A stretch of DNA of 60,249 bases, counting the filler, from Porpidia crustulata (lineage: Eukaryota): the NCBI GenBank assembly GCA_964255105.1. It is 4 parts of 4 records of this genome, joined end to end, with 100 filler letters (N's around TTAATTAATTAA, not from the genome) between each part and the next. Parts side by side here need not be neighbours in the genome. Positions count along the whole stretch, not along the records: positions 30,207 to 45,182 come from CAXUWE010000345.1; 3 more parts are not named here. One strand, written 5' to 3'. Made by a program: the position numbers and the translations under genes. The notes under the pieces are model-generated. The model was given only the letters and a program-made list of their open reading frames with translations. It did not search any database and was not told where the DNA came from. Below are positions 15,335-59,384 of the stretch, piece after piece. Position 1 is the first letter of the stretch. Every line of letters begins with the position of its first letter.

Positions 15335-18300
15335 TCAGACACCGCGGAACTGGCATACCGTCCATACGTTAGCGAAACTAATCTTCTGAAAACCGAGCTT
15401 CAAGGTACCCGCGTGCAGAAAAGGAGAGGTGATACTCACCAACCGCACGACCAAGAACCACACCGCCCCGAAAAACCGAAACAGGCTCAACCCGGCCACG
15501 CTCCACAGCACCACGGCCATGTAGATCGTGCTCCGCTGCGTCGTGCTGTTCCCTACCTGCACGCGCTCCAACCCGCCCGCACTCAGCACCACGGCCGCCA
15601 GCGCGAAATTGCAAAACATCCAGACCAGCACGACGGCGGACCGGAAACCCTTGTAGTAATCCTCCTGATGCTCGCTCTCCGACACCTTCTTGATTTCCTT
15701 GGGCGCTTTGAGGGCGATGCGGGCGAGCTCGGCGTCGTACTGGGTGTTGAGGTCGTCCGAGTCCTGGGGGATGTTGACGTCGACCTTGCCGCCGGGTTTC
15801 ATGACGGCCGAGGGCAGCTTCTCGGCCTTGTCGTCGCCCTTGGTGCCCCAGGTGATGTCGTGGGTGTTGCAGAAGGCGTAGACGTTGAGGATGTTGATGT
15901 AGGTCGGGGTGAGGAGGAGGTATTGGATGAAGCAGGTGAAGAGGTGCCAGGGGTCGAAGAACAGAAAGCTGATGACGAACCAAAGGATGTAGGTTGAGGT
16001 TAGGGAGATGATGAGGGTGAAGAAGAGCTGGTTTTTGAAGAGGTCGGAGACGTTGAAGCCGTTGGTTTTAGTTTCAATTTGGATGGACCGGACCGTAATG
16101 AAGACGGACGCGAAAACGAGATACACCATGATGCCGCACCAAAAGTATACCATGGTCATGTAGAATTTATTAGAGCCTTGGGGCCGGTTTCCAAGGGCGA
16201 GAACGAAGCAGGTTAGTAAGGTGGCGAGATAGAGCCATTCGAAGACAACGCCCAGGATATTGCCGGTTGTGGAGAGGAGATCTTTATCGCCGAGAGAATT
16301 TGTAAGAATGTGAAAGACAAGGAAAAAGTTTCCAATGGCAAACCAAGCGAAGAGCATGTTGATGGTTTGGTAGGTGAACTCGACTAAGAACATGAGCTTG
16401 CGGAGGAAGCTGTGGTCGCTTCTGTAGATTTGGTAGAAATGCGCTAGTGCATAGACGGCAGCAAAGAAACTACCGTTGAGCCATCTCCTTCGTTGCATGA
16501 TGAACTCAGCCATGGTATCTGGTACATCCGTTTCGCCGGTCGACGATTTGACGTATTGTAGGATCCATCGAGAATTTCTTTTTGCTACAAGCTCGAAGCA
16601 TAGGATTCTGTCTTCGGCCAAATACATGTTTGCAGTGAAAATTCCTGCGTTTGCTCCATGCATCTTCTCACCAGCAAAGTACTTCTCCAGTGGTCCTGAC
16701 CCGTTCTTGTCATTTTGCAACGCAACGTACCGGTATGCGGAGAAAGCTCCGGGCAAAACCGAGATGAATCCAAAAGCGGATTCAAGAGGTTTGTCAAGGA
16801 TGTTGCTCATCTTGTATTCAAAGTTCTGAGTAGCCACTAAAGGATTTAAGAGCTTTTTTCCTGCATTCAACATGACCTTGATCTCTCCACATGCCCCACC
16901 ACACATCGGCTCCAAATCAAAGGCTTTCCACAGATGATATATGGAGTCTTTGCCGGGTTTTGTTCCCGCATCGAGGAGGACGCAGATATTGGGATCCAGT
17001 ACACGACCGAAAGCCTGAAAGAACCACCTGTGCGAATTGATCTTCTTTTGGTTCTTTTCTTTCAGACAGAATATCATCTGTACAGGAGTTGCTCCTCTGG
17101 GCTTTACCACCACGGTCTTACCCTTGAGATCCAAACCTGCTTGCGTCGTGTATTCGTATATATGCGCTGTGACATCCTTGCCACTAACCTGCTGCTTGGC
17201 AATACCATCCTGATACACACCAAGACCTGCCAATACCGCTCTTGTCCGGGGATTGATTTTTGCACGTCCGTCACTGACTACACAAACTACAATCTTCTTC
17301 CAAGCTTCTTTGCCCCATGTCTTGCTGGTATTCCTCCCACACATGTGCTCAATATTCTTAAACACTCCAGTCATGGTCCTTGCAAAAAGAAAGTCGTCTT
17401 CGTTGTACATAGTGACGACAATGAAAAGCTCAGTGTGTCTTGGCTTGGCGAAAAGTCGCTGTCGTAGCGTAAAGCGCTCGTCATAGAAATCTTTAGGGTC
17501 ACAAGTCGCCGCAGTGTACCTCATATGAGTAAATTCATCTCTTCCCGGAGGCTCTGCGTGAGGAACTTGGCTCAAAAGCCTCGGAGGTATTGGACAGTCT
17601 AGCACCAAGTTGCCATTGAATAGTTGTACCTCTTTCACTGTTTTCCATCTTCGAATAGGCGCAGGACTCGGGGTTGTGCCTGGAGGAGGACCATCATACC
17701 TATCCTCAAAGGGCACTTCCATGTGCGGGTCTGGTCCATAGGCGCTGTCAGCTTGAAGGATCGGCTGGTGATCGTTATCATCATAGTATTGTTGCTCGTT
17801 GTGCGGAGGCATATGCGAGAATGGGGGTGGGGCTTGGTCATGCGGCGAAGGCTCATAGGGTTGTGTGTAGTAGGCATCGTGATGCTCTTCTGGAGATATT
17901 GCGTAATCGTTACTTTGATAGTCATACTCTTGTCTGGATAATGGGTTGTGTGCTTCGTAATGGTTATTGTGGTTCCGCGAGGATGCTATGTTCTCTACGG
18001 AGTATGTAGGTTGCGCCGCCAATCTGTCGCCGGGACCCATGGGAATCTGTAAAGGTGCTTGCGCGGGCCTGTATGGTCCATCTTCGAGAGTGTAGCCTTG
18101 AAGTGGCTGGCCTGGTGAGGGTGTGCGACGTGCGCGGGGATTCATTGGAGAGGGGTGATAATCTTCGTCTTCGTCTGGATATCGTCCAGAGTGGTCTGAG
18201 GAATGCTCACGATATCAGTAGATAGACGTTATAAGACGTGGCGAAGACAGAGGTTGAAACGATATCACGCACGATCTGGAATAAAGGATGACAAGATTTT

Positions 18301-30106: not shown

Positions 30107-30206
30107 NNNNNNNNNNNNNNNNNNNNNNNNNNNNNNNNNNNNNNNNNNNNTTAATTAATTAANNNNNNNNNNNNNNNNNNNNNNNNNNNNNNNNNNNNNN
30201 NNNNNN
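30107..30206. other. Artificial contig linker N44-TTAATTAATTAA-N44
   Basis: Same 100-bp spacer as at 15012. Confidence 0.98.
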
Positions 30207-31712
30207 ACCCACCACCGCCGGCGGCCCCTCCAACAAGGTCATCTGCCCATCGACAAACGTCATCATGGGATGAACATATCTGACCGAAGTCCCCGCGCCA
30301 AAATCAGGCTTGTACACACCGGCGTGTACCCAGGACGTGACGATAACATGCCTGCGACCGAGAAACGCTTGCCAGATCCTCGCGGGGCTCAGTTCGAAAG
30401 CCACGCCGTAGATATGCGCCGCCACTTTCTCGGGCGTGAACTCCGATAGAGTGGCGCGGATCTTCCTGGCGACCGTTGCTTTTCCGGAAGAGGCTTCTCG
30501 GCCTGTCATGGCTACGTCGGCGATCATGACCGGAGATCCCAGGAAATCCTCTTCCAATGGGTTTGCCAGACGTTTGCGCAGTCCGAAGCTGATGTCGCAA
30601 TGAACCAAGTCTTCATCTTCCGCTAGTCCACGCGCGCGGTTGATCGCTGCCCATACATGGGCCACGAGGGCGTCATTACGGCTGACGGGTAAATCGATTG
30701 ATGAGACAGTTGCTTGGATCTCGTCAATTTGGGTTGGACTGAAGTGAAAGACTGTATGAGACACAGGGGCCGTATTGTTTAAATTCTCCCAAGGAATTGA
30801 GGTAGCGGAAGCGGCCACTGTCTTCGCGGCTGGGTTCGTGATAAGAACGGCAGGGACATCGGTCGAAGCAGATTGCCAGGGACAATTGGGAGCAGAAGCC
30901 CACCAGTCGTACCGGTGGCACGGCAAGGAATAGGCCGTCTGGAGGATGTTATGTGAGGGATCGAAGGCCTTGACATCGTCTGCCGCGGCTGCATCAATCA
31001 AAGATGGCTGGAAGATAGGACTTAAAGCGGGTCTTCGGGCACCCGTGAGCACCGGAGAACTCATCTTTGCCCAATCGCCAACGAAATGAGAAAGCGATTG
31101 GGCGTCTGCAAGCGTATGCGACAGTCCCACGGCAATCGCAAGCCCGCCACAAGCGAAGGTCGTGATCTGGACCGCCATTGCGGGAACATTCGAGTCTGAT
31201 TCTGTTGATGTGCCAGAGGCGAGGGTTATGGCCGGAAACAGAACATCCTCACGGGGAATTTTGCCATAGATCAACCCAGATTTCGCTTGGCGCGTAGAGC
31301 TCGGGATGACCTCGTCGAGTCTAGATCGGCAATACGCCTCTACAAATTCGACTCCTGGATCTGAGGAGAAGCCATAGCATACTCTGACTCGACCGTATTG
31401 CTGACGGTGGAGTTGGTCCTGATCAGGCTGAAAAGGAACCATTCCGACGCGACCACTCCAATGAGAATAGGAATCAAGTGTTCTGCATAATGTCTCACGA
31501 AGATGGTGAGCATCAAATTTCGTAGAATAGTTACTTGTCTCGCTGGGAACATTAAGATACCAAATTGCTCCACATATGGTGAAGCTCACCGCTGTGGCAT
31601 CGATGATGGAGAGTTGTGTCGTCGTTCCTGGGGTGTCGTGTGTGGTGCTGCGGGAATAAGGAAATACTCGTTCCTTGGACTGCACCACGACTTCAATGGG
31701 AACTGGATTCAT
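30207..31712 (-). CDS. BAHD/'transferase'-family CoA-dependent acyltransferase, 3'-truncated at the contig end
   Basis: HxxxD motif (SHTLADA) after AVQITTFACGG, and DFGxG motif (PDFGAG). ATG at 31712; the frame runs into the gap. Confidence 0.9.
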
Positions 31713-32762: not shown

Positions 32763-33245
32763 ATGACCACCGTTGTAGCGAGGAAGACGTTTCGCTTCCT
32801 CACGGCTCATCAAGTACACAATCTCCACGATACTTGGATATATCCAATAGCTCCACTGTCACAATCAGGCTTGTTGGAATCTGGCGTGGTCTCGCCAAGG
32901 AACATCAAGCATTACACGAGTCAAGACAATGTCTTTCAACTTGCTGCCGCAATTTCTGAAAAGATCATGAAAAACCATGCTTTCCAAGACGGCAATAAGC
33001 GAACTGCGTTGATAGCAGCGGATATGTTCCTGAAAGTGAACGGGTATCAGCTTCAGTCCATACCACTTCAAGCAGACAGTGCGCACGATCAAGTTAATCA
33101 GCAACTGACGGAAGCACATGTTGCAATGTGTACCAACAAACTCACAGCGCAGCAGCTCGGAGAGCTATACCAGACCGTTGCTGTAAAGATCGAAGAGCGC
33201 ACTGAAGCAGTCTTGATGTATAAAAATGAGCACATTGAAGAGTAA
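32763..33245 (+). CDS. Fic/Doc (death-on-curing)-family protein, Doc-type motif, 160 aa
   Basis: Fic-fold active-site motif HAFQDGNKRTA at 32976-33008, preceded by GLLES..SP and followed by FLKVNGY, as in Doc-like proteins. Intronless. Confidence 0.9.
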   Translation: MTTVVARKTFRFLTAHQVHNLHDTWIYPIAPLSQSGLLESGVVSPRNIKHYTSQDNVFQLAAAISEKIMKNHAFQDGNKRTALIAADMFLKVNGYQLQSIPLQADSAHDQVNQQLTEAHVAMCTNKLTAQQLGELYQTVAVKIEERTEAVLMYKNEHIEE

Positions 33246-33361
33246 TAGCATGACTCTTACTGAGACCGCGATGGAAACATCAGGCGCGAAATCTCGAAGT
33301 ACCATTGACCGTTACAATCTCCATGGTGTTCTTGGTGAAGTAAAGTTAGGGTTTGTCGGAG

Positions 33362-33982
33362 CTATAGATCCCTCAACTTCTCCAACGCAGGTCCAAGTCG
33401 GTACCCAATGTCACTAGCAAATTCCGCAAATCCCGCTGACACGAGTCCTTAGCCATCAAGTTACTTCGGATAACAAAGGGAACTCACCGTCAGCAGTATT
33501 ACTGAGAGCAATGGTGTGTTGATATCCATAGAGGTATAGCGTTGCTGGGCTCACGTTGGATTTTGATTGAGAGGGGAGATCCTGCGGAATTACTAGACGC
33601 GGATAGCTGGGTGACAAGGCTTGACCAGAAAAGTTTAGTAGTACTAGAGGATTGAATGTAATAGGGCTAGCTTACGATGTTCGAAGTGTCGAGTATCATG
33701 AAAGAAACTGAGCGTAGATTTCGCGGAGCCATTGAGGGCTGCCACACTGTCGCTCAGCGCGTTGCCGGCGTCCAGGGCACGGCCAACATCGGTCGGTATT
33801 CCGACATAGGTGCTGCCCCGATCGTCCATCTTGATTGGGATCTTGTCAATGATGAGTTTTCCGTGTTTCCCATATTTGATGAAGTCGGCCGTAGCATCAT
33901 GGTAATGACGGAAAGCTCCTGCTCGGGCAACTTTACGAAAGGACAAGACGGCGAAGAGTATTTGAGTATTGAAGCGTAGCAT
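33362..33982 (-). CDS. Unknown 170-aa protein convergent with the Doc gene, presequence-like N-terminus
   Basis: Three exons (33982-33676, 33619-33488, 33435-33362). Introns GTAAGC..CTAAA..AAG (56 nt) and GTGAGT..GCTAAG..CAG (52 nt) give a continuous 513-nt frame ending LEKLRDL*. Confidence 0.75.
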
Positions 33983-34904: not shown

Positions 34905-36206
34905 TCAGACGTATTTCAGATCAACGTCCTGTCTGACACGAATACCGCTATGTGGTGTTTCTTGCTCCTGACCAAATTCTCTCATCTCATGTTCAGGATT
35001 TAAGGCGCTGTTGAATTCCGTAGTGCGAGAAGCGCCGTCGCCTAGCTGCACGAATTCCCCTTTATTCATCCCCCTCCGAGTCCATGTTTCTGGTAGAGTG
35101 CGAACTCCACTACCTGCGCTTGCACTGACTTTACTACTCGGTGTCATGTATGCGATGACTTTGCGGAATAAGTATACCATGCTTGGGAGACAAGCACTGA
35201 CGATACCGAAACATGGTTCGATTGATGACCAGATACAGATCGGCATCGAAGTCCCTGGTAAAGTAGTCAGATGGATCAATTCAAAGGATCCTGGGCCAGG
35301 TTGGAAGACTTACATGTCACATCTCTACTCATAGGGTCAATTCTGGTAAAGGTCACTAGGCGAATGATAGACATTGCCACCACCCTGAAGTAGACTGTCA
35401 GTATACTTCCAGCTGGGATTTTAGTGGATTATAATCACTCACGAGCCGCCAAGAGAAAAGACCCCAATTAGTGCAACCTTCTGAGACTTTGGAACTTGCA
35501 GTTTCCATATCAAGGGAAGAGGGAGTAGCAGTACAATGAGATCAGTGGAGGTGTTCTGAGCACATTGTGACAAGAAAAAGACGATGCTGTTAATACATTT
35601 GCCGGGTATCCTGGGATTCCAGGTTCTCGGGATGGGGGAACACTGAAAGATGGAGATGAAATTTGAGATGGTGGCCCAGGTAACGATAATAAGCGCTACA
35701 CCGTAAAGAGCGTATTTGAAGGATCGTTGGGGGAAGATTCGACGGTAGAAAAGGAGGATCGATAGCTTGACCATGGCGACGCCAAGATTATATATAATTT
35801 CTTGGAAGTAGAGAATTTTGAAGAAGTAGGCAACTCCGTCAGGAGCCGCCCAGACGTGTTTGCCCATCCCATGAGCAGCCTCTGTATTGAAAGTTAGTAA
35901 ACCGCATCAAAACCTCTCATACTAGGTGCTTCACTTACCAAGGATGAGACATACATGGACACCGATAATCAACGGCTGTAAGCATAGTATATCTCGAATC
36001 AGCTACTCGCCCGTCAAGACTGGGGATCATCATACCCATGCGCTTAGTACGAGCCAATCATCCCACCAAAATCCAGCTTCGGAGAGGTACCTCGAGATAA
36101 ACCTGACAGTCAACGCGATTGCTTCCAGTACGATGCAGAAGATGCCAATGCCAGCCACAAAATGTGTCCTGTCCTCACTAGGCGGGGCATATCCGCTGGC
36201 TTCCAT
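34905..36206 (-). CDS. PTH11-like integral membrane protein (fungal rhodopsin domain, no CFEM)
   Basis: Five exons. Motifs RFISR..GFWWDDW, GMGKH, KLSILLFYRRIF, FQCSP..W..GKC, TDLIVLLLPLP..KLQ and WSSIEPCFGIVSACLP. Confidence 0.92.
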
Positions 36207-50975: not shown

Positions 50976-51643
50976 TGGATAAATCTTGTGGTCTGTCCTG
51001 GTCTATGCCCGATACTAGTACAGTGATCGCCACTTTTTCAATTTCATATCCAAAGCAATGCGATGTACCCAGCCCATTATAGCATAGCATTGAATCCGAG
51101 AGCTCTGTGCCTTCAGCATGCTCTCGCTCGATGCCGATTAGCAGAGATATACAAAGTCCTCGAAATCGAGTTGGGTGAGTGGTGCAAAAGGATCTGCTGC
51201 AGCGCTCATGGTGGTAGAACGAAAAAGGTTTGATGCTGCCGATGAGTGCTGTGGCTGATCACTGTACTAATACCGGCGGGGCGGGACTCGGACTTAGCGG
51301 CCGGCATGCAAAGCGAATGTGGGAGCGGGATAATACATGGATGACATAAACGGGTGAGTCCGAAAGCTCTGTAGGGACCTCACAGCTTATCAAGTTTCCC
51401 TTCTACTGAATTCTCCACCAGCGATCTGATATTCGCCCCCTACCAAACACCTTGCTTACGAATCAAGTAATCTACACTCTGCCCGGAAGCCTCATGTGTT
51501 CAGCCACAGACTTCTTGAGCTTTCGACTACATTAGCGTTCAGTAGGTGTAGTAGCAATGCAATCACTAAGATACTTCCAGAGCTATATCATGATATATCA
51601 AGTCATTTCATGATCATGAGAATCTCCTCTAAGCGTTTGGGTC

Positions 51644-54600
51644 ATGAGCGCCAAACCTACGCCAGAGGGTGAAAGCCCCCTTGCCTCTTCTCTTTTCCTT
51701 CCCCAGCGCCGGCGTTCTCGTCGTGGATCGCTGGCATCGCTGTCCAGCACCTCCCAAGTCGACAAAGATACACTTGCTCAAGCCTTGGACCAGATACATA
51801 TTGCTGCATACCACAGCGGAACCCTTACAACGTTCAACGAATACACATCGCCACCATCGTCGTCCTCTGGGGTAGAAGCAAAAGGCATTGCAAGCGAGCT
51901 TCACGGTGGCTTGAGTGGGCTCTACAATAGATTCAAAGCGTCTGTGGGAAACGTCAAGGATGTAGTTCCATTGGGGAATGACGATGGAGCCATCGACGAC
52001 GTATCTGTAAAAAGCTCGAAATCAACTCTTCTCAGTCCGGCTTCGACCCAAGGAGCCTCTTCCGATCCTGCAAAACATGTCAAAACCCCTCAATCAATAT
52101 CAAACACGAGCTTCAGACCGGAAAAGCCCCGACAAATTCAGCCCGAGAGTGTCGGAATCGACCCGATTTTCAGAGATACTCTACGACAAACAAAATTGTC
52201 GAAAGTCTCCACTGGCAGTGCTAGTACATCTGTTAGGTCTTCCCTGGCCCCAGATGTTATTTCAAAAGCCTCCCTTGGCCCTTTAAAGCAAGCGACATCA
52301 TCCACAGTCGCCAAGCCCGCAGTAGCTGAAGTTAATGTTACCGCCATAAAAGAGTATGGATTAAGTGGCAAGCCGATTCTCAAAGGCGTAAGGAGTAGCG
52401 GATTGGCGTCCCCGGAACTAGTTGCAGACTCTTGGACCGAAGAGCGACCTACAGGTACAGATCATAGATCTTCTTTAGGGTCATATTCTGCGGAAGTACA
52501 ACCATTGGATGCTCAAACCCGGAGAGATATAAAGTCCCCACTCCCCAATACTGTACCTGACCGGGCAATCGCGGTATCGAAAGGTGTCAGTGAAGAATTA
52601 TTCGCTCGAGATGCAGGAGCGGCTCGTTCAAACAGATCAACCGAGGATGATAGTTCCCTACGGCTTCCAGGGAATGAGGGTGACATCAGAGATGGAAGCC
52701 TCATTCGACAAAGTCTTTCTGGCGCTGCTGGAAGCCTCAGAGAAGCACCTCCTCCAGCCACTACAACGGAAACAGGCGCAGAACCTTCACGAGACCTTAC
52801 AATGGCACTAAGTGGTACCTCTACTGCAGAGCTTGTCATGGCCAATCACCACCAACACTTGGAAATCCCTCCGCCAAAGCTCCCAGGAGAACCACGTAGC
52901 GGCAATTCTCCACCTCCCAACCTAAGTCTTTCTCGAGCGTCTTCCTCGGAAAGTGCAGGTATTACATCACACGTAGGCCCGAATCCGTTGTTTTTGAGTG
53001 ATGCAAGACCATCGGAGACAGTAGTGAAACATACTGGGGGCGCGTTCCAGTCCACCATGAGCCTCGAGCAATCTGATACTGACGCAAGAACCATGAACGT
53101 ATTCTCGCAAATCAAAAGTAAGATTCTGAATAAGGAGTACTGGATGAAAGATGAAAATGCGAGAGATTGCTTCTATTGCGGAGATCCGTTTTCAACATTC
53201 CGGAGAAAACACCACTGCAGAACCTGCGGCCAGATTTTCGACGCCAAATGCACTTCTCTCCTCCCGGGTTCGCACTTTGGACAGCCAGGGTCTTTACGTG
53301 TCTGTAAGCCCTGTGAAGGAATCATCAATGGATATGATGACTCCTCTGAATATTCTGATGATGGTAACGTGTCGGCAGTGGGGCTTAGACCAAGGCACGG
53401 ATCGACTGAAGCAAGTGATGTTCTTGGGACTCCTGTGCCAAAAATGACCCCTGATAATGTGGAGGAGTTTGGTCGAAGCCCAAAACATGTTGACCTTACG
53501 GTCCCAACAATGGCAATACCTGCAACTAGAAAGGCTGGTAGAGAATCTAGTAAGATAACCGTGGATGTGGAGAGACCTCTTCTACGCCCAACATCATCGA
53601 GATCCTTAAAATCTTCGTTATCCACCAGGCCATACTCGTCAGGTCATAAACGCCATAATTCTCGCCATCTGAATCAACGTAGCTTCAAACCCGTTGCGGA
53701 AGATAACGCCCCATTTCAACATGACGCACTAGAAAGCAAAGGGCAGCAAAGCCGGCTAACAGCATTCCACGACGATAACATTATCGACCCTGATCTAGCT
53801 CCGTACCTGTCTGATGAAGGCTCTAGTGGTGATGAACAGATGAGTATCATGGCTGCCTTGAGTGGTGAAGGACTTTCCCGTAGCTTTGACAGTGAAAGGA
53901 GTGGCCTTAATGGACTTTTTGCGTCCTCTAAGAAAGGGCGTTCCATAGTTGGCGAAAAGAACGTTGGCGGTCTTGCGCTTGCTAGTCGTGACGTTGATAC
54001 CAACAGCCTGAGCAGCTTAAGGGCAACTAATTACCCTCGCAACCCCAAAAAGCGGAATATGGCACTTGCCAATAGTATGTATTCACGGCCATCGCCTAGG
54101 AGCTGCAGAGCTGGTACGCTTATGCCGTCATACAATCAACAGCTGCACGAGAGCTCGAGCAGTTCAGCTCTCGCTCAAGTAATCTCATCAAATAACAACG
54201 TGGTGGGATCCCGAATGATACGATCGTCCTCTATGAGAGGGTCTTCCGCCCCAGCGGTCGAGTTGAACAATGCGAGTCTTCATCATGTCAGGAAGTTGCT
54301 TCGGCAGCTCCTCCAAGACGTAGGTATACCATCTGTAGTCAGCTGGGAAAAAGCTTTGATACCTATACTACTACAGGCTACTGATGATGTCAATCCCAAT
54401 GTGCAGAATGGGGACGATATAGATGTCAGACACTATGTCAAACTGAAAAAGATCCCAGGAGGCCGCCCTGGGGATACTTCGTATGTTTCCGGGCTTGTCT
54501 TTACCAAAAACTTGGCTCTCAAGTCAATGCCTCGCACCCTCTCTCACCCCAGTATCCTGATTCTAACGTTTCCTCTCGAGTATGCACGCCATCAGCAACA

Positions 54601-57600
54601 TTTCATGAGCCTTGGCCCTGTCATCCGGCAAGAGCGCGAGTTCCTTCAGAACCTTGTGAATCGAATTGTCTCCCTACGTCCCCAGCTCCTCCTAGTAGAA
54701 CGAAATATCTCAGGACTCGCCCTCGAATTCCTTGAGCAGGCGAACATTGCCACGGCCTATAATGTGAAACCTTCGGTCCTCGCTGCTGTTTCTCGCTGTG
54801 CCCGCACAAGGATCATATCATCCATTGACAAATTGGCCATTAAACCTGCGCAGGCAGGAACTTGTTCAAATTTTAATTTGAAAACTTATGTGCACGGAGG
54901 AAGAAAGAAGACGTACATGTTCTTATCAGGCTGCACGAAAGAGCTTGGTTGCACAATAATACTACGTGGTGCTGGGAATGAGACGCTTGCAAAAGTGAAG
55001 CAAATTACTGATTTCATGGTCTACGTTGTCTACAATCTAAAGTTGGAGACGTGCCTGATGAGAGACGAATTCGCCTTGATTCCCTCTACCATTGGTCTTG
55101 GATCACTTTCGCCAGGTGGAGCCGATCGAATGGTCTCCCAAGGAGCTGATGCCAGTCTAGCTTTTCCTAACCATGCCGTGGCCGAAGCAGGCGCTCGCTT
55201 ACAACGCAACGAAGCCGGCAACAATCGAGCATTATTCAGAAAATCGACTGCGGACGAATCCGAGAAAGTCAGATCAAACCCCAAAGAACCCGAAGCGAAA
55301 CCAGGCATGTCTGATGAAATGCCTCTCCCTGACGATATTCCAATGCCAACGTTCTACGGTGACATGGTTGAGGAACATAAGACGAAAATTTTATCCGCCT
55401 CTCCATTCGTCAATTTCATGCAACCCTACCTGCTCATGAGAGCTAGGGAAGAAGAAAGGCGTTTGACGTATCTCAGACGTCTTTGTGACCAAGACATTCA
55501 AGAGGAGCAAAAATTGGATGAGACGGTAGAACCTCAAAAGTTTGATCTCATACGGCCAGAGATGATACACAAAGAAGTACAAGCGACATCGAAGAAGGTT
55601 CGTGAAGTACTACATGCACTTCACGATGCTGAGTACGATAGGGCTCTCCACAATTATCAGACACAAAGTAAACAGTGGGAGATGTATATCGCGGGCAATG
55701 CTGGTCTTTTCGACCCCTATGCTCATCAAAATATCGCAGTCCTATATAGTGTGGTCTGCACTGTGACCACCGTTCCTTGTTCTGGACCAGATCTGCTTGC
55801 GCTGGCTTTCTACAACCAGAACGAAACTGATGAAGATTTCGAAGCAGACTGTACATTAGGACAATACGTTGAAGATCTGTGTCTCCAAGCGAATACTGTG
55901 TGTACCGCGAATGGGTGCGAACGTAAAATGCTCGATCATCATCGGCAATATGTTCATGGTGAAGCTCAGCTCAGTGTCTTTGTCGAACGTTACCCATGCA
56001 AGCTTCGCGGGCTTCAAGATACTATTCTCATGTGGAGTTGCTGCAGGATATGTGAGAAGGAGACCCAAGTAATGCCCATGTCTGAGAGCACCTGGAAATA
56101 TTCTTTTGGAAAATACTTGGAGCTGTCATTTTGGAGTAGTGGTCTCCGTGCGAGAGCTGGTGTATGTCCTCACGACCTCCATCGAAATCACCTCCGATAT
56201 TTTGGGTTCAAAGACTTAGCACTTCGCGTGCATTATGATCCCATTAATCTCGTTGAAATAATTGTGCCTCGAGTCAGAATCACTTGGAAGGTGGAGAACG
56301 ACCTTCGCTTCAAAAATGAACTTTTCTCCAAGATCGAAGATAGGCTTAACCGATACATGACTTCTGTCAAAGCCAGGATCAGAAGTATCAGGGTCGAGAC
56401 AGTCATACCGGAAAAGATGGATGCTTGCAAACAAGAGGTTGAAAAACTCCAAAAGCGTGCTTCTGACGAGCACCCATTTCTGATCCAGACACTTCAAGAG
56501 ACGTACATGGACTCAAAGCATTATGAGATTATTCCAATGAATCGCGCAATTAGCATCACACAAGAGAAAGTCGCTGAGTGGGACAGCGCGTTTGCAGATT
56601 TTGATCAGAACTTTTTCCCTTCCGAAAAAGATATCCGGCGGCTTGCCACGCTCCAGCTTAAGAAAATATTCCTCGATCGAGACGAATCTACCACATCACT
56701 GACAACTACAGAAGAAGGTAGTGGTACCTCAATTTCTGAAGATGTTTCGAATGAAAAAGACACCCCCGATACTATGGCAACATTGCCACCTCTTACGCGC
56801 AAGTTGTCTCCTGAGAAGGCACATGATATGTTAACCTTGGTTGTGGAAAACAACGTCTCCAGTCCAGATTATACCGAACTAGGCCAAGCGCACCAACATC
56901 AAAGCGCCCCGGCTACAGCAGTGCCGACGGACGATTGCAAAGAAGGGCAGACTTCTCTACAGGATCTCGAAGGAGAGGGTGTCAACCATCTGGATCTTGC
57001 TATGTCCACAGAAGCTTCGGAAGCGCTTGCAGGCAATCCGAAGTGTGCCCTTCAAAATCAAGCAGGCGACACGTTGATACCAGATTCTCACGTACAGTCC
57101 AAGCTAGCGTTCACTCCGGCCATCGATAAGCTTGCTATGAATATTAATGATATCACCGAGTCGACTTCGAAAGACTTTGCCGTTACAGAGCAAAGCAAAA
57201 AGTCCTGTATTCCGAGGCCTGCTGAGGCTAGCTTGCGTCGTAGTAATGTCAATGTGTCTCCGCCCTTAATCCGTGCACACTCGCAGCCAGTGCATGTTAG
57301 AAGGGAAAGGAATAGCAATGGCAGCCAGACATCAATGTTGTTATCTCAGATATCGGACAACGAGGCCCAGATCAAACGTCAAGACTCTATGAGCAATGCG
57401 ATACCACTTAGCCTGACGAAAGTTGGAGAAAAGAGAATATCGGATCGCGTTGGTCTCTGCGTGCTCAAACCCAACGGTATCCCTCCTCACTCGATGATAC
57501 CGCGGTCCATTGCTACCCGGAAAAAGGATTCACAGGTCTCTACGCTGGCAAAGCACTTTGAACAATTGAGTCGAGAATTTGAGAAGGAACGGATTCGAGA

Positions 57601-59384
57601 GCGGCGCTTACGTGCGTCCAAAAGCAGGCAAGCAAGAGCATATCCACTTGCCGCATCAAAGCCCATTGTTGAAATCTACAAGAACGTACGTGAAGCTGTC
57701 GAAGAGCGAGAGCCGTCTGACGAGGAAATGGTCACAAAATATCCGCAGCCGGAACACGCGGAGAGCTCCAGTACTATTGACATGAGTGCAAGTACCGAGT
57801 CGCACACGCAAGGCGATGGCTCATCGCGTACCGAGGACACAACAGCAGATACGACGGAGACTGATGAAAAGGATCATCCCGAAAGCTACACAGGATCTGA
57901 CATTGAGGGTGAGAGCGGTCACTACGGAGGAGATCCCTCCATACTAGACGGAATCAATGTCCCTGGAGCGGCAAACGACCACCATGCACTCTCTCCCTCA
58001 GAAGCGCAACTGGACCTAAAACTTGACCTACCCAAACATGAAAAAACTTCCTTGATGAAAATGCTGACGAATTTCTGGGCCGAGAGATCTGCAAGTGGTT
58101 GGCAGCCATTGGACTACCCTCTCAACGCATCAGACCATGTGTTTGCTGATTCCGACATCATTGTGCGAGAAGACGAGCCAAGCTCGCTCATTGCATTCGC
58201 CCTAAATTCGGAGGACTATCGTGCCAAATTGCGGAGCATAGCTGCGGATGCGGGAGAAGCCAAGGACGTAAATCGAACGAGTCCCTGCCCGCCTTCCAAG
58301 ACGGACTCTGACGATCAGATTAAGGTGGAGCAGGCGCTACTAAGACCAGTGGGTACCCATCTCAAATATCAGTTTCAGGAAGGTCATGCCAAGATGCTGT
58401 GTAAAGTCTTCTACGCTGAGCAATTTGATGCTCTCCGTAGAAAGTGTGGTGTCGCCGATAGGTTTGTTGAGTCGGTCTCTCGCTGTCTGAAATGGGACTC
58501 GAAAGGAGGCAAAACCAAGTCTGTCTTTCTGAAGACCCTGGATGACCGCTTCGTGCTGAAATCACTTTCACCAATCGAGACGCAAGCGTTTCTCCGATTT
58601 GCTCCAGCATATTTTCGCTTCGTTTCGGAGTACTTCTTCCATGAGTTACCCTCCTGCATTGCCAAAATGCTCGGCTTCTATCAGATCATCATCAAGAACC
58701 CCGTCACGGGCGTCGAATTCAATTGGTTTCTCGTCGTAATGGAAAATCTCTTCTACGACCGTTCTCCGACGCGTATCTTCGACCTCAAAGGTTCCATGCG
58801 CAATCGTCGCATTCAGTCCACGGGGGAGCAAAACGAGGTTCTACTCGACGAGAACATGGTGGAATTCATCTACGAGTCTCCGCTCTTCGCTCGCGAACAC
58901 GCAAAGAGATTGCTAAGAGCAACGGTATTCAATGACACATTGTTCCTGCAGAAGCAAAACGTCATGGACTACTCGCTCATGATTGCCATTGACGAAAACC
59001 GGAAAGAGCTGGTCGTGGGGATCATCGACTGCATTCGCACGTACACGTGGGACAAGAAGCTGGAATCGTGGATCAAAGATCGAGGCAAGAATCGGCCAAC
59101 GGTCACGAGTCCGAGGGACTACAAGACAAGATTCCGGGAGGCGATGGGGCGGTATATCCTACAGGCACCCAAGTAAGTATTTCCACCAATATTTCTAACT
59201 ATCCTCCAAACCTCTCCCTCAACACTCTCCCCCCCCCCTGAGACAATCAAAAATCCAAACTAACCCCCCCCCAAGCTGCTGGCACAATTTCCGCGCCTCG
59301 CAGGTCGAATACACCCGCCTAAAACTACGGGACCAAGAACCTCCCGAAGAGAAAGAAGCCGACGACGCGGATGCAGCGGCTTGA
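51644..59384 (+). CDS. FAB1: 1-phosphatidylinositol-3-phosphate 5-kinase Fab1/PIKfyve
   Basis: FYVE (WMKD..RRKHHCRTCGQIF..RVC), CCT/Cpn60-like domain, Cys-rich CCR and PIP kinase domain (GGKTKS, DLKGS, MDYSL, IIDCIRTYTWDKKLE). Terminal intron 59173-59275, then NCWHNF..* ending at 59384. Confidence 0.98.

Follow-up and report, generated by a model that had tools for sequence, protein, structure and literature searches.

The genome of Porpidia crustulata (GenBank assembly GCA_964255105.1) carries a gene for a Doc-type Fic enzyme that lies tail-to-tail with a small gene, hereafter the partner gene. Do these two genes form a working unit in a fungus, and what kind of unit would it be? The pair was analysed within a stretch of 60,249 nucleotides (the window), which joins four parts of four genome records end to end, with 100 filler letters between one part and the next. 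To our knowledge, toxin-antitoxin modules on chromosomes are seen as an invention of prokaryotes, and fungal 'DOC family proteins' have hitherto been merely annotated or listed in passing. An earlier note made from the window sequence proposed a toxin-antitoxin-like pair, perhaps mitochondrial, in an accessory contig. The Doc identity, the gene structures and spacing of the pair, its linkage in other fungi and the basic N-termini of both proteins have held up, whereas the accessory contig has not. It is highly probable that Doc and its partner form a functional two-gene module.

The Doc gene is an intronless open reading frame (ORF) at positions 32763..33245 of the plus strand, which runs from an ATG at 32763 to a TAA stop codon at 33243-33245 and encodes 160 residues including HAFQDGNKRTA. 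The catalytic motif within it, HAFQDGNKR, agrees with the Doc-type signature H-x-F-x-(D/N)-(A/G)-N-K-R, in which Lys replaces the second Gly of the Fic motif. Consistently, the product matches both the Fic family of Pfam (PF02661; 6.1e-14, 53.1 bits against a cut-off of 24) and the DOC_P1 'death-on-curing family toxin' model of NCBIfam (TIGR01550; 7.8e-15, 55.1 bits against a cut-off of 38.65), and a profile hidden Markov model (HMM) of fungal Docs aligns with it over positions 3-153 of 154 (E 5.6e-71). As judged from these matches, the ORF is a member of the Doc subfamily of Fic/Fido enzymes. Phage P1 Doc phosphorylates EF-Tu at Thr382, and by analogy with P1 Doc the fungal enzyme is most likely a protein kinase rather than an AMP-transferase. 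The Doc fold was checked on P0199, a relative from Lophium mytilinum that is 53% identical to the window Doc, the window protein itself being known from sequence. The Doc part of the P0199 model has the all-helical Doc fold and superimposes on P1 Doc (3dd7_A) with a Z score of 16.5 and a root-mean-square deviation of 1.8 Å over 118/123 residues; Foldseek gives E 4e-4 and a template modelling (TM) score of 0.85.

The partner gene converges on Doc from the minus strand (33982..33362) and consists of three exons. Exon 1 (33982..33676, 307 nt) encodes a presequence-like N-terminus of 27 residues with 5 K/R and no D/E, followed by a conserved core containing R-x-Y-H, GD..YV.IP..VG.AL and FFHDTRHF. 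Intron 1 (33675..33620, 56 nt; GTAAGC...AG) is followed by exon 2 (33619..33488, 132 nt), which encodes the YPRLVIPQ.LP...SPATL...H.IAL motifs common to relatives. Intron 2 (33487..33436, 52 nt; GTGAGT...CAG) is followed by exon 3 (33435..33362, 74 nt including the TAG stop codon at 33362-33364), which encodes a C-terminal helix ending in ...LEKLRDL, the family consensus being ...L..LKDM. The reading frame and the family motifs run on only once intron 1 is spliced out, and positions 115-163 of the partner HMM match at 33671..33459, in the exon 2 region. Because relatives carry the motifs encoded by exons 2 and 3, the three-exon model is supported. The spliced product of 170 residues is matched by the family HMM from end to end (positions 1-167 of 170, E 6e-59), and 100/170 of its residues are identical in P0196. 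As measured on the window, a spacer of 116 bp (33246..33361) separates the two convergent stop codons.

Linkage of the pair in other fungi was a test set beforehand, and the pair passed it. Metagenome loci were fetched with the partner alone, using a 12-sequence alignment, with Doc playing no part in the selection; 17 of 135 pattern matches encode a partner relative, and Doc was sought in these 17 loci by tblastn and by profile on six-frame translations. A Doc gene, intact or cut by the contig end, adjoins the partner in 12 of the 17 loci (L001-L009, L011, L014 and L016), and a Doc relic does so in two others (L010 and L012). Three contigs (L013, L015 and L017, of 2481, 2826 and 1087 bp) yielded no Doc, but they stop 0-335 bp from the partner on at least one side and do not count as negatives. 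At more than 90% partner identity the 17 loci collapse into eight lineages, of which five have an intact Doc, one has the relic and two are too short to judge. This sampling proceeds from the partner side only, and the share of fungal Docs that have no partner is outside its scope.

Annotated genomes give the same picture. Doc and partner carry consecutive locus tags in Onygenales sp. PD_40 (FQN55_005826/005827), Microsporum canis (McanMca71_004700/004701) and Cirrosporium novae-zelandiae (M1834_002971/002970), and in three further species, Byssothecium circinans, Cadophora sp. DSE1049 and Aspergillus homomorphus, both proteins come from contigs of identical length. Merged gene models, annotated as single 'Fido domain-containing' proteins of 255-292 aa, join the two in Lophium mytilinum (P0199, 292 aa) as well as in Trichophyton interdigitale and T. 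mentagrophytes (P0181, P0226 and P0229). These models are probably artefacts of annotation, given that locus L009 (88-90% identity to P0181) has a stop codon and then an ATG of its own for the partner; they nevertheless prove the same-strand adjacency of Doc and partner. Species with a linked pair span four classes of Pezizomycotina, namely Eurotiomycetes, Dothideomycetes, Leotiomycetes and Xylobotryomycetes.

The arrangement of the two genes varies among these loci. They converge in the window and in L001-L008, L014 and L016. In L009 (2430-3422 of a Trichophyton-like contig) Doc precedes the partner on one strand, with the Doc stop codon at 2838-2840 and the partner ATG at 2851; this operon-like spacing of 10 bp is unusual for a eukaryote. 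In L011 the partner precedes Doc on one strand at a distance of 0.5-0.7 kb, as it does the relic in L010 and L012. With three orientations among the loci, the pair does not have the layout of an antitoxin-first, co-transcribed operon. The outer neighbours also differ from lineage to lineage: transferase and rhodopsin-like genes in the window, P450 and ferritin-like genes in L003, DUF7877 and PP2C genes in L010, ribophorin II in L014 and a methyltransferase in L013. Because adjacency outlasts inversions and a full turnover of neighbours across classes, selection for linkage, or the two genes moving together, is indicated rather than leftover synteny. The order of loss is visible in one lineage. 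In L010 (7097-7279; the sequence is the same in L012) what is left of Doc is a pseudogene some 540 bp downstream of a partner gene that looks intact; it contains an in-frame stop and still encodes just the last 60 residues of the C-terminus, the catalytic two-thirds being gone. Such Doc-first decay, as read from the sequence, is the order that would be expected if the partner were protective.

What kind of protein is the partner? Exhaustive HMMER searching with exon 1 yielded 67 representatives at E<=0.001, including the window's own ORF and the merged model P0181, and a profile search added 39 proteins, of which all the named ones are fungal and all are 'hypothetical'. P0169 and P0180, among the 67, were set aside as repeat-rich chance matches, judged by sequence. 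Members share a variable leader, a conserved R-x-[FYLC]-H junction, GDPGEAYVLIP.EVG.AL and FFHD(T/S)QHF; downstream of the intron 1 position they share YPRL.IP..LP.Q...SPATL...H.I.LDGT.DA and a C-terminal helix that ends in L..LKDM. H27 (directly after the leader), H98 and FFHD(T/S)QHF are near-invariant; the window version of the last, FFHDTRHF, is encoded in exon 1 in the region 33700-33680. No Pfam match was found in 40 members at E<=10, and the scan of NCBIfam and the search of PDB sequences returned a lone chance match each (0.18 and E 0.21, respectively). By sequence, the partner falls into none of the known antitoxin families Phd/YefM, MazE/AbrB and RHH.

When the partner of Onygenales sp. 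PD_40 (P0195) is folded alone, the model has a mean predicted local distance difference test score (pLDDT) of 63.9 and a predicted TM score (pTM) of 0.38, and it is confident only in two beta-hairpins and the C-terminal helix. Foldseek with this low-confidence model finds nothing at E<=0.001. The best VIA-align hits reach Z 3.9 for the P0195 model and Z<=4.1 for the partner part of P0199, and protein atlas scores of 0.81 or lower are leads only. The lack of a fold match does not make the fold new, the partner-alone model being of low confidence. Taken together, these sequences appear to define a family, found in fungi only, of proteins of about 170 aa with a leader, a beta-rich core containing FFHD(T/S)QHF and a conserved C-terminal amphipathic helix.

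The merged Lophium model allows Doc and partner to be viewed in one chain. When P0199 (292 residues) is folded by AlphaFold2 as a single chain, in one run without controls and on an alignment that comprised 4 merged sequences along with 46 Docs and 24 partners, the mean pLDDT is 88.3 and the pTM is 0.85, and most 10-residue blocks of the partner part exceed a pLDDT of 90. The pTM values of 0.85 for P0199 and 0.38 for P0195 alone come from different target species and different alignments. Because a pTM of 0.85 would be unexpected for randomly placed domains, AlphaFold2 is taken to predict a compact assembly, which fits the role of 'antidote or cofactor' suggested for the partner. The C-terminal helix is the most confident part of both models. 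A Mycoplasma Fic protein (8idv_B) aligns with residues 9..292 of the P0199 model with Z 7.8, and there is a hint, from the model only, that the C-terminal helix of the partner may occupy the place of a helix that is built into larger Fic proteins.

Both proteins of the window begin with a basic segment that is free of acidic residues, the first being D at residue 23 in Doc and D at residue 29 in the partner. These are traits of the families as a whole. Among 35 partners examined for a leader, the junction pattern R-x-[FYLC]-H was located in 34, in one of these at a wrong place; no D/E precedes the junction in 32 of the 34. Typical leaders are 15-43 aa long, contain 3-8 K/R and several Ser/Thr and show little sequence conservation. 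A variable, acid-free basic leader with Arg at -2/-3 is the textbook form of a cleavable mitochondrial presequence, and the partner leaders have this composition (variable, Arg/Ser/Thr-rich, acid-free, Arg at -2/-3). Because most of them have no hydrophobic core, a secretion signal is argued against. In Doc, the N-terminal segment (profile columns 6-34) of 46 fungal sequences averages 0.35 acidic and 3.65 basic residues, compared with 3.94 acidic and 2.31 basic residues in the 36 of 80 bacterial sequences that cover it; the net charge is +3.3 versus -1.6. The segment has no acidic residue in 30 of the 46 fungal Docs and in none of the 36 bacterial ones. The basic N-terminus of Doc would fit an uncleaved targeting signal; it could equally serve partner binding.

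Doc itself is widespread and well conserved in filamentous ascomycetes. Among 496 candidates of similar length, 424 are Doc relatives at E<=0.001, and the matches listed include at least 120 that are 46-100% identical to the window Doc. The named ones among them belong to filamentous ascomycetes, including Aspergillus, Penicillium, Trichophyton, Microsporum, Pyrenophora, Bipolaris and Cadophora, and most bear the annotation 'DOC family protein'; the named proteins among the 120 matches listed include one Sordariomycete only and zero yeasts. Several genomes have two copies, as judged by names. An alignment of 46 fungal Docs has a mean column identity of 53% with H68, G73, N74, K75 and R76 invariant, and a motif search finds the full catalytic motif in 45 of 46 fungal and all 80 bacterial Docs. 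The closest prokaryotic Docs share 27-61% identity over short core segments (best E 3e-17). In a quick maximum-likelihood tree, 41 fungal rows are split from 8 bacterial rows by a long branch with a Shimodaira-Hasegawa-like approximate likelihood ratio (SH-aLRT) support of 84. Class labels, which are mostly from general knowledge with four checked, change only 3 times for Eurotiomycetes and 2 times for Dothideomycetes, against means of 16 and 12 after shuffling. From these sequences, Doc seems to have been acquired by fungi once, long ago, and to have been inherited mostly vertically since then, some old paralogues being present as well.

A two-gene module that is conserved in filamentous ascomycetes (Pezizomycotina) and consists of the Doc enzyme and a cognate partner would explain these observations. 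The partner would bind Doc directly and control it, most likely by inhibition in the manner of Phd or MazE-type antitoxins. The pair would act in mitochondria, where the bacterial-type EF-Tu would be a candidate substrate. As a whole, a Doc module with a controlling and possibly mitochondrial partner is mildly favoured, and its parts differ in strength. Direct binding of the partner to Doc, as the model predicts, is probable. Inhibition by the partner, favoured because of the predicted tight assembly, the conserved linkage and the Doc-first decay in one lineage, comes close to an even chance. The leader of the partner, together with the basic Doc N-terminus, favours a mitochondrial site, and the composition of its leader makes the partner likely to be a mitochondrial protein. 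Mitochondrial EF-Tu, named by analogy with the phage enzyme, is only a tentative candidate for the Doc target. An extended version, in which a bacterial Doc was domesticated once in Pezizomycotina and paired with a new or diverged antidote, both proteins being mitochondrial and braking organellar translation through EF-Tu phosphorylation, is rather doubtful. In a bolder variant of it, import of the leader-bearing partner would separate the partner from Doc, and mitochondrial import competence would set Doc activity.

Several points weigh against this explanation. Strong conservation of Doc together with its class-wise clustering is unlike typical mobile toxin-antitoxin loci. A classical toxin-antitoxin system is further at odds with mostly vertical descent, with a partner outside the known antitoxin families and with convergent genes in the window, which exclude co-transcription and hence an operon. 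The near-invariant His/Asp motifs hint that the partner may have a metal, ligand or catalytic site of its own, which would be atypical for a simple antitoxin. Because the partner persists where Doc has decayed, it may have a role that does not depend on Doc. The predicted interface comes from one uncontrolled single-chain run on a probably artefactual gene model with 4 paired rows, and the covalent junction may impose contacts. As to the mitochondrial site, composition is the whole basis of the presequence assignment, and Doc lacks a separate leader that could be cleaved off: its basic N-terminus belongs to the folded helix 1, which aligns with helix 1 of bacterial Docs. Because fungal Docs form one clade, the charge contrast with bacterial Docs is essentially one evolutionary event. 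Finally, each protein would need a signal of its own because folded complexes cannot be imported.

The main rival to a restraining partner is a cooperating one. The partner may be a positive subunit of Doc, acting as a substrate adaptor or in targeting, or an enzyme that reverses the Doc modification, in which case the pair would be a reversible switch. The near-invariant polar motifs (H27, H98 and FFHD(T/S)QHF), which suggest a ligand, metal or catalytic site, would be accounted for in this way, and the mean column identity of 53% and mostly class-wise inheritance of Doc would fit a housekeeping regulator. The intact partner beside a dead Doc is also in line with it, and a solved Fic-antitoxin complex acts, by its title, as a de-AMPylase (8wt0). 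However, neither Pfam nor PDB sequences nor fold searches reveal a likeness of the partner to any enzyme family, the predicted tight assembly fits an inhibitor equally well, and the Doc-first order of loss is what a protective partner predicts. A cooperating partner is therefore given a minor but real share of the probability.

The ancestry of the partner raises an alternative that is compatible with the preferred Doc module under partner control. The partner would be a strongly diverged MazE/AbrB-type antitoxin, gained together with Doc and later extended by the leader and by strands. Among 77 candidate ORFs upstream of the bacterial Docs that most resemble the fungal ones, 40 were scanned (loci L018-L064). 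Twelve of the 40 match MazE_antitoxin (SpoVT/AbrB type, Pfam) at E<=0.01, seven of them above the gathering score, which speaks for such an origin; one is of the Phd/YefM type, there is one weak RHH match, and 25 have no Pfam match at E<=0.01. In the sole hhalign alignment the partner falls on the SpoVT/AbrB signature (partner ..VGDPGEAYVLIP.E.G.A. versus ..VGN-S.GV.LPKE.L..L). The P0199 model shows a strand-strand-helix-strand-strand order in the authors' reading of its DSSP string, and a C-terminal helix is common to the partner and the MazE-type families. However, the comparison of the partner profile with 11 MazE-type Doc antitoxins is not significant (hhalign probability 0.4%, E 0.16), no partner matches PF04014 at E<=10, and the partner HMM has no match at E<=10 in the 80 bacterial Doc loci. 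AbrB/MazE chains are also absent from the matches of the structure searches, though such small domains score low. On sequence grounds, descent of the partner from a MazE-type antitoxin is possible but unsupported, and we consider it improbable.

Less probable still is that toxin and antidote make up a selfish element (for example a spore killer, a post-segregational killer or an addiction module carried by mobile DNA), in which linkage would be kept because a separated toxin kills its carrier. Adjacency through three orientations with unrelated outer neighbours would be expected of such an element, as would the two copies in several genomes (by names), the count of one Sordariomycete and zero yeasts among the named proteins of the 120 matches listed, and the Doc relic next to an intact partner. 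However, the class labels are strongly clustered in the quick tree (3 and 2 changes versus 16 and 12), the Doc sequence is highly conserved, the window contains core genes, and a search of the window found no repeats or terminal inverted repeats flanking the pair. Adjacency as inherited microsynteny of two proteins that act independently, to which the age and mostly vertical descent of both families in Pezizomycotina and the lack of a shared promoter between convergent genes would lend themselves, is very improbable given that adjacency survives changed orientations and outer neighbours across four classes, that all assessable partner loci have a Doc or a Doc relic and that a joint fold is confidently predicted for P0199.

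How does a Doc module with a controlling partner compare with known systems? The closest is the type II system Phd-Doc of phage P1 (PDB 3dd7, 3k33 and 3kh2), which shares with the fungal pair the Doc fold (Z 16.5), the catalytic motif with Lys for the second Gly and a small neighbour gene, whose product in the fungal case is predicted to pack on Doc. The layout of L009 and Trichophyton, with ORFs 10 bp apart on one strand, also resembles it. In contrast to Phd-Doc, the fungal pair is eukaryotic, nuclear and intron-bearing, its gene order and orientation vary, being convergent in the window, and its partner has about 170 aa, a presequence-like leader and no similarity to Phd/YefM. Because no DNA-binding domain is evident in the partner, operon autoregulation is unlikely for the fungal pair. 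Bacterial Docs with a MazE/AbrB (SpoVT)-type antitoxin share with it the short resemblance to the AbrB signature and the C-terminal helix, but this likeness is not significant, the fungal partner has double the length, and none of the 80 bacterial loci examined contains it.

Class I Fic pairs (VbhT-VbhA and FicT-FicA) and Fic-1/AntF likewise combine an enzyme of the Fic fold with a separate small controller, and the Doc part of the model aligns with them with Z 7.4-8.2 (3shg, 5jff and 8wt0). The antitoxins of class I Fic pairs insert an inhibitory (S/T)xxxE(G/N) helix. Unlike fungal Doc, the class I enzymes have a GNGR motif and are AMPylating. FICD/HYPE, the animal Fic enzyme of the endoplasmic reticulum, is a eukaryote-native Fic fold sent to an organelle (4u04, Z 7.5 versus the Doc part). 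However, it is an AMPylase with the GNGR motif that also has TPR repeats, a transmembrane helix and an inhibitory helix within its own chain, whereas fungal Doc is minimal (136-160 aa) and has a separate partner.

A full-text literature search, with subscription journals outside its reach, found no study on the function of fungal Doc or its neighbour, and as far as searched the conserved eukaryotic pairing of Doc with a new partner family is undescribed. Kinch et al. (2009, PMC2686095) place fic/doc in 'a few fungi'. The Doc gene also appears in two published transcriptome tables; Trichophyton rubrum Doc (TERG_02161) is given at -2.25 among genes modulated by terbinafine in keratinocyte co-culture (PMC6963840). 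With a conserved and apparently co-folding partner in at least four classes, fungal Doc changes from an orphan annotation into a two-component system. Dermatophytes, Aspergillus and Penicillium are among the fungi concerned, and these comprise major pathogens of humans and plants as well as species used in industry. Should Doc be a kinase that the partner controls in mitochondria, the pair would represent a new regulation of organellar translation, dormancy or cell death and the first toxin-antitoxin-type kinase/inhibitor module shown inside a eukaryotic organelle, and a function would be assigned to a protein family of no known fold.

The surroundings of the pair resemble ordinary chromosome, because core genes share the window with it. 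Among these are a chitin synthase (15338-18214), a mitochondrial-type ribosomal protein L22 (28872-29837) and a 2518-aa Fab1-like FYVE/Cpn60/PIP5K protein (51620-59173; a Fab1-type PIP kinase), together with a molybdate transporter; this is why the description as an accessory contig was dropped. The pair itself is flanked by gene-free DNA on either side, in agreement with the 0.9-1 kb of non-coding DNA first described: about 1.05 kb on the side of a transferase gene, which ends at 31712, and about 0.9 kb on the side of an ORF at 34905..35246. The former, a Transferase-family (PF02458) gene on the minus strand (30159..31712), lies 1 kb upstream of Doc, and because its translation ends in a run of X, a stretch of N is indicated near 30160-30200. 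A TPP1-like gene is also present in the window, and base composition is uniform along its length.

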